Assembly (NCBI RefSeq): GCF_017348835.2
Contig: NZ_CP071375.1
Length of the DNA: 64,000 nucleotides
Direction: 5' to 3' (one strand)
Source: Escherichia coli
Lineage (GTDB): Bacteria > Pseudomonadota > Gammaproteobacteria > Enterobacterales > Enterobacteriaceae
Position numbers and translations under genes: made by a program. The notes beneath the pieces were generated by a model, which saw only the letters and a program-made list of their open reading frames with translations, searched no databases and was not told the origin of the DNA. Position 1 is the stretch's first letter; every line of letters starts with the position of its first letter. Positions 10,198-18,976 of this stretch are shown here, in pieces.

Positions 10198-10202
10198 GGT
10201 TC

Positions 10203-10242
10203 AAACAGGTGCTGCACACAACCAGACGCGGCACCTGTTTTA
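10203..10242 (+). terminator. Intrinsic terminator after yhgN (10-bp inverted repeat aaacaggtgc/gcacctgttt followed by TTTTATT)
   Basis: Inverted repeat plus T-tract immediately 3' of the yhgN stop; abuts the stop codon of the DprA-like gene on the opposite strand. Confidence 0.55.
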
Positions 10243-11445
10243 TTACCTGAACTGATAATGACCTTCGCCCAATCGGATAACCCTTCCCTCTTCTTCTGCG
10301 CGGTTCAGCCACACACTAATTTGTTCGATGGTTAAACCAGTACAAGACGCCAGCCTTTCAATACTTATCGATTCCTTTGCAAGGATCGCCAGTTCCGCCA
10401 CAAAGAGTTGATAAAAATCGACAGGCGTATACGCGGGCATTACTGCGTAATTTGCGTCATCTTCATGCAGCGAAAACAGTTCTGGTTGAGCGTTACGGAG
10501 TGCTCTGTCATACATCAGCCCAGGAACGTCTGGCAGTCTGATCGTCACATTCTCAGCCTGTTCAGCACTCCATGACGCCCCATTTTCTACTAATCGTGAA
10601 TTGGCTGATTGCATATCCTGATTTGGTTTAACCTGCACAGGCAGCCACTGATGTTTTAATGCCTCCATCGCCCCGGTTATCGTTCCACCGGTCATTCCCG
10701 CACGTACAACCATTGCGCTTTCAGCAAGGCAATAAATATATTTATTTCGCGCCATCGCATTGCCGACGGTGAAACGTACCTCTGGGTAAAACGGCGAAAT
10801 CAACACCAGGTTGCCTGCTATAAGCCCTTCACGCCATTTCACTAACGTACTCGTTTTTAACAAGCTATCAGCTAATACGCCAACGGCAGTTCCCCCGGCC
10901 TCCAGTGCCGACGCCATTGCACATTCATCAATACCTCGCGCACCACCAGAGATAACGCAAATCCCCTGTTGGGCCAGTTTCGCGGCCAGTTGTTGGGTAT
11001 AGCGCAAATCGTCAGTCGGAGCATCTCGCGAGCCAACAATCGCCATACCTTCCGCTTGCAGTAATGCTTTATTCCCGCAGCCAAATAAAACGGGAGGTGC
11101 ATCCGTTCGCAATCGGTTTTTCAAGCGAACGGGATAATCGGCATCTCCGCGGGTTAAGATCCATAAACCGGCGCGTTGCCACTTATCTACCGCCAACGCC
11201 AGACTATGACCGCGCGCCAGCAAGCCAAGAATACGCTCCTGAGAAATACGCGGATCGCTCCAGCCTGTAAGTTTATCTTGCGGTTGCGGCACCAGAAGCT
11301 CGGCGGGACTGATACGTTGGTGCTTCAGCCATAATGCAAACTTCCCCCATTCACTATTACTAAGAGGTTTATACTCACTCGCCGCCGCGCGAGAAAAATC
11401 GCTGGTTAGCAGGAGAGTTGCTTGTGCATTGGCTGAAAGATTCAT
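10243..11445 (-). CDS. DprA/Smf-like protein (SAM-like N-term, Rossmann DprA core with GGARGID motif, C-terminal winged-helix-like tail); partner of helicase-PRTase gene
   Basis: Track ORF 10243..11538; start set to ATG 11445..11443 (MNLSANAQATLLL...), which overlaps the upstream gene stop as TGATG; motif VISGGARGIDECAMASALEAGG typical of DprA Rossmann domain. Confidence 0.75.
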   Translation of the reverse strand: MNLSANAQATLLLTSDFSRAAASEYKPLSNSEWGKFALWLKHQRISPAELLVPQPQDKLTGWSDPRISQERILGLLARGHSLALAVDKWQRAGLWILTRGDADYPVRLKNRLRTDAPPVLFGCGNKALLQAEGMAIVGSRDAPTDDLRYTQQLAAKLAQQGICVISGGARGIDECAMASALEAGGTAVGVLADSLLKTSTLVKWREGLIAGNLVLISPFYPEVRFTVGNAMARNKYIYCLAESAMVVRAGMTGGTITGAMEALKHQWLPVQVKPNQDMQSANSRLVENGASWSAEQAENVTIRLPDVPGLMYDRALRNAQPELFSLHEDDANYAVMPAYTPVDFYQLFVAELAILAKESISIERLASCTGLTIEQISVWLNRAEEEGRVIRLGEGHYQFR

Positions 11446-13541
11446 CAATTTTTTACCGAGGTAGAAGCAAGGGCAAGAGGATAAACCGTCGGGCAACCTG
11501 CCTGGCCTAACAGTGCTGTCAGAACTGTCAGCGTCCATGCAGAATCCACGATATCGTCAACCAGCAACGCCGGACCAGGCATCAAAGGAGGGGTAATCAC
11601 AAACGCCCCGTCGAGATTTTGACACTGGTGGAAACGGTTTTGCTGCATTTTCTGCGGTGGATTGTCCACGACTTTTTCAATGGCATCAATAAAAGGTAAG
11701 CCAAGTTTCGCCGCCAGTCGCCGGGCAAAATCAGGAACCAGGTCGAGGTGCTTTAATGAAGGAACGCAGCATACCCAGGTTGGTTCAGGATGCGGATTCC
11801 AGCGTTGGCGAACCATTTCCGCACATGCCTCCACCAGTTCATCACTGAATCGCCCCGTTTTTTTCTCCTGTGCTACCTGCTTTCCCCACCCGGAATCTCC
11901 CCAACGAGAAAGGATTCGCCCCGTAGATCCTTGTAAACTCGCAGGCAAGTTCCCTTTAAATCCGTATTGCGTAAAAGCCCCAGCTGCCACCTGTTTATTG
12001 AGATTTAATGGCAGGTCAGCGTGTTTAATAAATAAGTTTGCCGCATGGAGTAAGCCGCTATCAATGTCGGGCGACAACAACGGATGCTGAAGACAACTGC
12101 TACATTTACCACAATGTTCGGCACCTGGCTCATCGAGTGCGCGGCGCAGAAATTGCATTTTGCACTCCTTGGTCGTGATATAGCTTTCAACGTCTGCCAG
12201 CTCACTTTTTCTCTGATTCATCAAATGGTTAATTCGTTCATGGTCAGGAGAAAAACTGACAATTGTTCTGCGCCATAATTTCTCGGTATACACCACAGGC
12301 GATGGATTTTCAGCTACCAATAATTTCAGTGCTTTTTCTATTTGCCCGTAACGGAGATTCGTCCGTTGTTCAATGCCTCGTAAGGTAAGACCGTCATTCA
12401 CGCTAAGTACGTTGAGTATTTCATGAATTTGCGCCTCCGCAGGAAAGGCGCTTTCACGGAAGAATTTATGAATAGCACGGTCTTCACTGCCGCAAAGCAG
12501 TATGCCAACAGCAGAATCGATACCGCGACCGGCACGCCCCACCTGTTGGTAGTAACCAACTATCGAACCTGGCATCTGGTAATGAATAACAAACCCCAAA
12601 TCCGGTTTGTCAAAGCCCATTCCCAGCGCCGTTGTCGCAACCAGCACTTTAATTTTATTTGCCAGCAACGCCTGCTCCAGATATTCCCTGGCAGTATTAG
12701 AATCTTCCGCGCCTTCACAAGTCACGCCGCTGTAGTAAGCAAATGCACTGATACCATTTTTCCTTAACCACTCGGCGACAAGTTCGGCATCGCGAGTAGT
12801 CAGGGTATAAACAATTCCCGATTTGGAAAACTGAGGGATAACTGTTGCTAACCATGCCAGACGGGATGACTGTTCACCTAAGACTAAGGCATCAAGCGCC
12901 AAACTTTCGCGAGCCAGCGTTCCACGCTGAATCACAATGTCACCCAATTGCTGACGGATATCCTCAACGACACGGTTATTCGCTGTCGCGGTTGTACCCA
13001 GAACAGGGGTATTCGCAGGTAGTTGGCGCAAAATATCTAATATACGTCGGTAATCCGGGCGAAAATCGTGGCCCCAATCAGAGATGCAGTGCGCCTCGTC
13101 GACCACAAGCAAGCCAATACGATCGGCTATAGGATATAAAACCGTTTCGATAAAGTCCTGGTTTGCCAAACGTTCCGGGGAAACCAGCAAGCAATCGACC
13201 TCACCTTGCAGCAACTTATCGCTAATGCGCTGCCATTCTTCTCTGTTTGTAGAATTCAACGTTTCAGCCGTAATACCTAACCGTTCAGCGGCGGCAACCT
13301 GGTTACGCATCAGGGCAAGCAAAGGAGAGATGATAATTGTCGGGCCAGCGCCGCGATCGCGGAAGATTTTACTGGCGATGAAGTACACAGCACTTTTCCC
13401 CCAGCCAGTGCGTTGGACAACCAGCAGTTTTCGCCGTTGGTTCACCACCGCGTCTATGGCTTCCCATTGCCCTTCCCTGAAAGTAGCGGTGGTATTTCCT
13501 AACATCCGCTGTAAAAGCAATTCAGCTGCGTGCTTTTCCAT
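11445..13541 (-). CDS. RecQ-family SF2 helicase fused to C-terminal ComF/GntX-type PRTase-like domain
   Basis: 698 aa; helicase motifs TGWGKS (Walker A), VVDEAHCISDWGHDFRPDY (DEAH), TATA, QQVGRAGR; RecQ-type Zn cluster CK...C..C..C (HCGKCSSC); C-terminal QNLDGAFVITPP...ALLVDDIVDSAWTLT resembles a PRTase fold with substituted PRPP loop; AGGAG SD 5 nt before ATG. Confidence 0.8.
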   Translation of the reverse strand: MEKHAAELLLQRMLGNTTATFREGQWEAIDAVVNQRRKLLVVQRTGWGKSAVYFIASKIFRDRGAGPTIIISPLLALMRNQVAAAERLGITAETLNSTNREEWQRISDKLLQGEVDCLLVSPERLANQDFIETVLYPIADRIGLLVVDEAHCISDWGHDFRPDYRRILDILRQLPANTPVLGTTATANNRVVEDIRQQLGDIVIQRGTLARESLALDALVLGEQSSRLAWLATVIPQFSKSGIVYTLTTRDAELVAEWLRKNGISAFAYYSGVTCEGAEDSNTAREYLEQALLANKIKVLVATTALGMGFDKPDLGFVIHYQMPGSIVGYYQQVGRAGRGIDSAVGILLCGSEDRAIHKFFRESAFPAEAQIHEILNVLSVNDGLTLRGIEQRTNLRYGQIEKALKLLVAENPSPVVYTEKLWRRTIVSFSPDHERINHLMNQRKSELADVESYITTKECKMQFLRRALDEPGAEHCGKCSSCLQHPLLSPDIDSGLLHAANLFIKHADLPLNLNKQVAAGAFTQYGFKGNLPASLQGSTGRILSRWGDSGWGKQVAQEKKTGRFSDELVEACAEMVRQRWNPHPEPTWVCCVPSLKHLDLVPDFARRLAAKLGLPFIDAIEKVVDNPPQKMQQNRFHQCQNLDGAFVITPPLMPGPALLVDDIVDSAWTLTVLTALLGQAGCPTVYPLALASTSVKN

Positions 13542-13639
13542 CTTTATCTCCTGCGATCTTTAGGCAGTGATTAGAACGGATTATTTGCAGGTAAATTTGC
13601 GAGAGAGATCAAAAAGATGAAGAGAGGAGAAAAGAGAAA

Positions 13640-13667
13640 TGAATTACTGCGAGCAAGCTCGCAGTAA
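13640..13667 (-). terminator. Intrinsic terminator after gntU (palindrome ttactgcgagc-aa-gctcgcagtaa, U-tract on minus-strand RNA)
   Basis: Near-perfect 11-bp inverted repeat just 3' of the gntU stop (13681), followed by T/C-rich run on the transcribed strand. Confidence 0.55.
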
Positions 13668-13680
13668 TTTGTCGCAGTAA

Positions 13681-18765: not shown

Positions 18766-18886
18766 GATTTCGTCCTTTTTAAGGTGGTTATTTACACCTT
18801 AGCGCAAAGCGGACGTGGTTCCTACTGGAGTGCGCATAACGAACACAAGCACTCCCGTGGATAAATTGAGAACGAAAGATCAAAAA

Positions 18887-18976
18887 AAAAGCCAGCACCC
18901 GGCTGGCTAAGTAATACTGGAAGCAATGTGAGCAATGTCGTGCTTTCAGGTTCTCCGCGAGGGTCTTCCTGATCGC
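18887..18976 (-). ncRNA. ryhB: RyhB small RNA (Fur-repressed, iron-sparing regulator)
   Basis: Minus-strand sequence GCGATCAGGAAGACCCTCGCGGAGAACCTGAAAGCACGACATTGCTCACATTGCTTCCAGTATTACTTAGCCAGCCGGGTGCTGGC + U-tract matches RyhB; located between yhhX and yhhY as expected. Confidence 0.9.

Follow-up and report, generated by a model that had tools for sequence, protein, structure and literature searches.

The fusion of a RecQ-like helicase to a phosphoribosyltransferase (PRTase) domain was defined in 2012 for RqlH of Mycobacterium smegmatis, which comprises a RecQ-like ATPase, a linker, a tetracysteine zinc domain homologous to that of E. coli RecQ, and a ComF-like PRTase domain (Ordonez, Unciuleac and Shuman, 2012; PMC3378886). 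The mycobacterial enzyme, a 3′-5′ helicase, keeps its ATPase and helicase activity without the C-terminal domain, and the same authors remarked that some E. coli strains carry RqlH (PMC3378886). In the extraintestinal pathogenic E. coli (ExPEC) strain F11, RqlH is genotoxic without its partner RqlI (Russell and Mulvey, 2015; PMC4670107), causing SOS induction, filamentation and growth arrest (PMC4670107). The two proteins are also known as PsyrT and PsyrA (Sberro, 2013; Millman, 2022); the system has been grouped beside ComFA/ComFC and DprA (Iyer et al., 2017) and described as anti-phage (Millman et al., 2022). Neutralisation of the toxin by its partner and activity against phage have been published for F11 and other PsyrTA loci. 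Some 30% of complete E. coli genomes carry the rqlHI genes, which influence the gut fitness of ExPEC and are counted among the anti-phage systems. Here we consider the rqlHI locus in a stretch of 64,000 nucleotides of E. coli DNA (contig NZ_CP071375.1 of assembly GCF_017348835.2; hereafter the window), and in particular RqlH's C-terminal domain and its substituted loop for the binding of phosphoribosyl pyrophosphate (PRPP).

The feature is already known, since the domain was described in 2012 and its loop mutated in 2015; the fusion, the fold, the likeness to ComF, the RecQ-type zinc module and the mutagenesis of toxicity have all been published. What we add is a single, small point: the loss of the TTG motif from the PRPP loop is a conserved signature of the family, and the resulting loop resembles those of the active enzymes Hpt and PRPP synthetase. 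An original prediction, made by reading this DNA, had described the domain and taken the missing TTG as a sign of a non-catalytic sensor or a non-canonical ligand. That prediction is partly supported, in that its structural part is right and its functional inference is not.

The window gene is rqlH

The gene and the parts of its product that identify it are as follows.

11445..13541, minus strand: rqlH / psyrT coding sequence, RecQ-like helicase with a fused PRTase-like domain (698 amino acids, stop codon included)
12471..13484, minus strand: superfamily 2 helicase core, residues 20-357 (Pfam DEAD, 4.9e-25; Helicase_C, 9.5e-13)
13392-13406, minus strand: motif I, GWGKS, residues 46-50 with K49 (sequence reading)
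13089-13100, minus strand: motif II, DEAH, residues 148-151 with D148 (sequence reading)
12093..12164, minus strand: RecQ-type tetracysteine zinc module, C460-x16-C477-x2-C480-x2-C483 (direct reading)

The open reading frame is a full-length match to the PADLOC PsyrT model PDLC03928 (E=0, 1063 bits) and exceeds the NCBIfam recQ_fam cutoff of 219.8 with a score of 253.8 bits; the PGAP annotation names the product 'RecQ family ATP-dependent DNA helicase'. The zinc module lies some 100 residues beyond the helicase core, the two being separated by a family-specific linker. It aligns without gaps to D. radiodurans RecQ (4q47), with all four cysteines in register, and Pfam RecQ_Zn_bind gives a weak match to residues 443-484 (E=0.0031). 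No Pfam match to an HRDC domain was found in RqlH. All the sequence features that mark RqlH/PsyrT are thus present: the helicase core, the zinc domain and linker without HRDC, the ComF-like PRTase domain and a DprA-like gene downstream.

K49 and D148 coincide with the positions of the published K49A and D148A mutants (PMC4670107, PMC3378886), and the numbering of K49, D148 and D663-I-V-D666 in the window protein is identical to that of F11 RqlH (PMC4670107). The shared numbering makes it very unlikely that F11 RqlH differs in architecture. The window gene is the known rqlH/psyrT, an allele of the same locus as in F11. A uropathogenic E. coli allele is 98% identical in nucleotide sequence over the C-terminal 706 bases and has an identical loop. 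Between the window and F11 RqlH/RqlI we see no substantive difference: architecture and residue numbering are shared, as is a downstream DprA-like gene with overlapping stop and start codons. M. smegmatis RqlH, likened here by description, is a distant ortholog with the same domain order, differing in that the mycobacterial gene lacks an rqlI partner.

The C-terminal domain and its predicted fold

The domain and its first recognisable motif are placed as follows.

11448..12086, minus strand: ComF-like PRTase domain with an N-terminal 'hood', residues 486-698 (core approximately residues 589-693)
11601..11618, minus strand: NLDGAF motif, residues 642-647, ahead of the strand of the PRPP loop (compare RNLKNAF of ComF/GntX)

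The interval to which the prediction was assigned, 11448-12150, corresponds to residues 464-698 of the 698-residue open reading frame. The strings that it quoted all lie within that frame, at residues 642-647 (NLDGAF), 661-670 (VDDIVDSAWT) and 682-692 (GCPTVYPLALA, 11466-11498).

Searches with the single sequence were weak. Pfam Pribosyltran gave E=0.018; among NCBIfam models HGPRT gave 0.058, PRPP synthetase 0.11 and GntX (NF008616) 0.02, the last with 14.4 bits where the cutoff is 304. A phmmer search of the C-terminal domain against the PDB returned nothing significant (best E 0.78; PRPP synthetase 1.7). BLASTP with GntX from the genome of the same E. coli strain gave E=2e-5 and placed VDDIVDSAWT opposite VDDVVTTGST. 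Because single-sequence searches were uninformative, the fold had to be assigned with a profile and a structure model. Among 1.84 billion cluster representatives searched, 1448 proved to be related to the domain; 52 of them formed an alignment (A1) that was used both as a profile and as input to AlphaFold. N642 is invariant in A1, with NLDGAF opposite NLKNAF of GntX. Against the PDB the A1 profile retrieved chains of the PRTase fold exclusively, headed by PRPP synthetases (1dkr, 1e-6) and followed by HGPRTs and PurF. The AlphaFold model built on A1 is very confident (predicted local distance difference test score 95.4, predicted template modelling score 0.91), and Foldseek gave ComFC the highest query TM-score, 0.51. 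In the model a strand (173-180) is followed by a helix (184-195), with the sequence LLVDDIVDSAWT, and the hallmarks of a type I PRTase PRPP loop are present, namely a hydrophobic strand, two acidic residues and a phosphate-binding turn ending in threonine. The C-terminal domain is accordingly modelled as a type I PRTase fold, nearest to ComF/GntX, in agreement with the BLASTP match, the profile and the ComFC hit. The prediction had named a fold other than PRTase, or an intact loop on proper alignment, as findings that would overturn it; alignment and model gave neither.

The nearest structural neighbour, ComFC (7P0H, H. pylori; PMC9005727), and GntX share with RqlH the ComF-type core and an N-[LV]-x-[GN]-A-F motif. 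They differ in two respects. ComF and GntX have an N-terminal CxxC...CxxC zinc finger of their own (CWLC, CSVC, CPQC and CGRC in GntX), whereas RqlH has the RecQ-type C-x16-CxxCxxC arrangement; the prediction that the zinc cluster is RecQ-like rather than ComF-like is borne out by the register with 4q47 and by the CxxC pairs of GntX. The ComF loop is also canonical, DD(I/V)xTTGxT, in contrast to DD-x-V-D-S-x-W-T in RqlH. Membership of the ComF family itself was rejected, as zinc finger type, loop and score (14.4 bits against 304) all fail.

Two PADLOC fragment models for DpdF, PDLC02869 and PDLC02866, which are 74 and 255 positions long, match the PRTase domain strongly (2.5e-53 and 3.1e-12). 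They were not taken to indicate a Dpd system, the locus having no other flanking dpd genes. RqlH-like C-termini look to have been the source of these models, which could lead to fragments of PsyrT being labelled DpdF in error.

The PRPP loop is a conserved signature of the family

11532..11561, minus strand: PRPP (ribose-5-phosphate) loop VDDIVDSAWT, residues 661-670 (GntX alignment and family signature)

The published DIVD663EVME substitution begins at D663 and ends at D666 (PMC4670107). Residue counts were taken from 141 of the 150 best representatives of clusters at 50% identity, with loop positions numbered from the first aspartate.

Position 1, D in E. coli: D in 140 of 141
Position 2, D in E. 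coli: D in 141 of 141
Position 3, I in E. coli: M, V, I or L
Position 4, V in E. coli: V in 111 of 141
Position 5, D in E. coli: D in 114 of 141
Position 6, S in E. coli: S in 137 of 141
Position 7, A in E. coli: R in 75, G in 47 and A in 7 of 141
Position 8, W in E. coli: W in 136 of 141
Position 9, T in E. coli: T in 133 of 141

TTG occurred in the loop of none of the 141 RqlH-family representatives. The replacement of the TTG of ComF-type loops, seen in the alignment of VDDIVDSAWT with VDDVVTTGST of GntX, therefore extends through the family, whose common signature, DD-x-V-D-S-[R/G/A]-W-T, reflects selection and not decay, given its conservation over representatives of 50%-identity clusters. 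At position 7 few members have the alanine found in E. coli. That the substituted loop marks a ComF-like domain which has decayed and lost its function might be suggested by the weak single-sequence matches to PRTase families. We give this practically no credence, and regard it as refuted by conservation and the published mutagenesis: the loop and some 30 other positions are invariant or nearly so across clusters at no more than 50% identity, the structure model is very confident, and point mutations in the loop abolish the phenotype.

The consensus VDD(V/I)xTTG(A/S)T, against which the loop had appeared aberrant, fits the loops of ComF, APRT and OPRT type and not the superfamily as a whole. 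In E. coli Hpt the loop reads VEDIIDSGNTL (PDB 1g9s, residues 98-122), and in PRPP synthetases DDIIDTAGT (B. subtilis), DDMIDTGGT or DDMVDTAGT. DDIVDSAWT is identical to the B. subtilis PRPP synthetase loop at six of nine positions, to Hpt at five and to GntX at four, and the loop length, both acidic residues and the final threonine are all kept in RqlH. Hpt and the class I PRPP synthetases, which gave the best PDB profile matches, can be summarised as [DE]-D-I-[IV]-D-[ST]-[GA]-x-T, with 5-6 of nine positions shared with RqlH; they differ in being housekeeping enzymes with other hoods and oligomeric states, and their loops lack the Trp and Arg of the RqlH family. In HGPRT the aspartate at loop position 5 (human D137) acts as general acid/base on purine N7, and the turn of the loop holds the 5′-phosphate mostly through backbone amides and the hydroxyls of Ser/Thr. 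The equivalent of T670 in ComFC, T165, is the last threonine of the loop and is needed for ligand binding (PMC9005727), and ShosT, whose loop (D336-G337-N338) also lacks TTG, has been crystallised with PRPP (PMC11961720, PMC12961424).

Since the active Hpt and PRPP synthetase loops likewise lack TTG, its loss from RqlH is no evidence that the domain is dead or serves purely as a sensor. The step from a missing TTG to a non-catalytic sensor or a non-canonical ligand was based on too narrow a consensus: Hpt has D-S at this place, PRPP synthetase D-T-A, and ShosT binds PRPP. What is unusual in the RqlH loop is the near-invariant tryptophan at position 8 and the frequent arginine at position 7.

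A probable toxic effector held in check by RqlI

In F11, deletion of residues 509-690 of RqlH removes toxicity (PMC4670107). With either D663A or DIVD663EVME (D663-I664-V665-D666 changed to E-V-M-E), growth, SOS and cell length are normal and colony-forming units (CFU) are modestly lower (PMC4670107). The helicase-dead mutants K49A and D148A are still toxic, with low CFU, more SOS induction and more filamentation, and the toxicity of K49A is rescued by the addition of D663A (PMC4670107). RqlI co-precipitates with RqlH solely when the PRTase domain is present (PMC4670107). The mutagenesis of loop and DEAH box that the original prediction had put forward as a check was thus in print in 2015 (PMC4670107), and it came out differently for the two sites: loop mutants lose toxicity while helicase-dead mutants keep it, which argues that the domain is an effector and not a sensor. 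Toxicity does not stem from helicase activity, which seems instead to restrain it.

The domain is most likely a toxic effector kept in check by RqlI. We think it probable that it is the C-terminal effector of the RqlH/PsyrT toxin, a PRPP-dependent enzyme restrained both by RqlI and by the helicase. The loop would still bind a phosphoribosyl group: in the alignment with characterised enzymes, D662 and D663 would contact the ribose hydroxyls and Mg, the 5′-phosphate would be held by the backbone of D666-T670 together with the hydroxyls of S667 and T670, and D666 would occupy the place of the general acid/base of HGPRT. PRPP or a related phosphoribosyl compound would then be bound by the domain, which would either catalyse a transfer or consume PRPP, and the product, or the consumption of PRPP, would damage DNA replication and lead to replication stress, SOS induction and filamentation. 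The outcome may be of the abortive-infection type, as proposed for ShosT, with the helicase and RqlI restraining the domain until phage infection perturbs them and releases it.

A parallel is provided by ShosT/ShosA, likewise a PRTase toxin with a DprA-like antitoxin and a non-canonical PRPP loop (PMC11961720, PMC12961424). ShosT toxicity also depends on the DD motif, DD mutants being non-toxic, and is accompanied by DNA damage and filamentation. Membership of the ShosT family was rejected for the window protein, which has no match to the ShosT hidden Markov model (HMM); the fusion partner in ShosT is an N-terminal pyrophosphatase-like domain.

Several points weigh against the PRPP-dependent effector. 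PRTase activity, PRPP binding and a product have not been demonstrated in any RqlH/PsyrT, and ComFC and ShosT are likewise without a demonstrated transfer reaction. The PRTase domain alone is non-toxic, so that the remaining protein must contribute (PMC4670107). The arginine at loop position 7, present in about half of the family, and the near-invariant tryptophan at position 8 are absent from the characterised PRTases compared, and the geometry of the loop and its ligand could differ from theirs. The roles given to individual residues above derive wholly from sequence alignment. Finally, one native-host study, in which E. coli PsyrTA was expressed in K-12, saw no protection against its phage panel.

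If the domain were instead a non-catalytic ligand sensor, as are PurR, PyrR and possibly ComFC, binding of PRPP or a nucleotide would switch the helicase or the complex, and toxicity would be made elsewhere. This seems to us quite unlikely. K49A and D148A remain toxic and D663A restores viability, so the other known activity of RqlH is not the toxic one; deletion of the domain or mutation of its loop removes toxicity instead of deregulating it; and residues of catalytic type (DD, D666, S and T) have been conserved, just as they are in active enzymes.

In the model of Russell and Mulvey the PRTase domain modifies DNA directly: the helicase carries the domain along single-stranded DNA, bases of the chromosome are phosphoribosylated or otherwise altered, and RqlI resolves or prevents the lesion. 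Several observations fit. Cells lacking RqlI show SOS induction, mutate at a higher rate and are sensitive to DNA damage; the motor to which the domain is fused translocates 3′-5′ on single-stranded DNA; the PRTase domain by itself is not enough for toxicity; the partner RqlI resembles DprA, a single-stranded DNA binder; and the invariant tryptophan of the loop could stack on a base. However, PRTases are not known to accept a DNA base, toxicity does not depend on helicase activity, and the related ShosT is reported by its authors to disrupt purine metabolism rather than modify DNA. Direct modification of DNA is an unlikely explanation in our judgement. A further proposal, which we consider rather improbable, is that the nearly invariant D-S-[R/G/A]-W-T loop, whose Trp and frequent Arg replace the small residues of other PRTases, could define a subclass of PRTase with a non-standard substrate, for example a base in single-stranded DNA presented by the helicase, or a modified nucleotide. 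If true, RqlH/PsyrT would be the first DNA-directed or signal-directed PRTase toxin.

The partner gene rqlI

10243..11445, minus strand: rqlI / psyrA coding sequence, DprA-like (SLOG) antitoxin, probable start M32 (400 amino acids)

The rqlI product matches Pfam DNA_processg_A (5.6e-51) and SLOG cluster4 (5e-11), and PsyrA also matches the ShosA HMM (3e-27). In the PGAP annotation the protein has 431 residues and starts at 11538, within the A668-W669 codons of the rqlH loop, giving an overlap of 94 nucleotides between the two genes. Positions 1-397 of the 398 in the PADLOC PsyrA profile align to residues 32-431 of this longer frame (E=3.8e-202), and a published RqlI truncation, 1-320, was described as lacking the 'C-terminal 80 residues', implying a protein of 400 residues (PMC4670107). 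Because the profile begins at residue 32 and the published protein implies 400 residues, we favour a 400-residue RqlI starting at M32, and the annotated start is probably over-extended. The ATG of M32 (11445) overlaps the stop codon of rqlH by one nucleotide, in TGATG, and rqlI is translationally coupled to rqlH.

Locus and genomic setting

10198..13680, strand not applicable: strain-variable segment carrying rqlHI, 3483 bp (MG1655 annotation and junction comparison)
13642..13669, minus strand: terminator-like hairpin 3′ of gntU, between gntU and rqlH (a pattern match from a consensus scan)

The window lies in the E. coli chromosome with the gene order glgB, asd, yhgN, gntU, gntK, gntR, yhhW and then RyhB onward. 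Between the stop codons of yhgN and gntU, K-12 MG1655 has 56 bp; here 3483 bp take the place of that spacer, precisely from stop to stop, and hold two minus-strand genes, rqlH and rqlI. The 56-bp spacer of K-12 is a hairpin terminator. No mobility genes were found within 10198-13680, flanking repeats not having been searched for, and a scan with the sigma-70 consensus found no promoter upstream of rqlH. Of 5426 complete E. coli genomes, 1650 carry the rqlHI locus, in every case on the chromosome, and no E. coli match to the 3.3-kb locus falls below 95% identity.

Two disrupted copies of rqlH were seen in other strains. In O157:H7 ATCC 43890 (NZ_CP045863.1, L004 1111-3235) rqlH is a pseudogene with a deletion of one nucleotide near codon 173 and an insertion of 29 bp, AAAGCACCTCGACCTGGTTCCTGATTTTG, which appears to duplicate a stretch of the PRTase domain coding for KHLDLVPDF. 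The DprA-like rqlI is annotated as intact in this strain, so that the antitoxin has been kept and the toxin lost. In NZ_OZ501598.1 (L006 1552-3586) rqlH is interrupted by an ISEcp1-blaCTX-M-15 unit, and PGAP names the C-terminal remnant 'ComF family protein', an independent sign of its ComF-like character.

Elsewhere in the window, the small RNA RyhB (18883-18947, minus strand; Rfam RF00057, 83 bits) is at its usual site beside yhhX/yhhY. The G+C content of positions 62001-64000 is 0.357, against approximately 0.52 for the remainder of the window, and this stretch may be a horizontally acquired segment.

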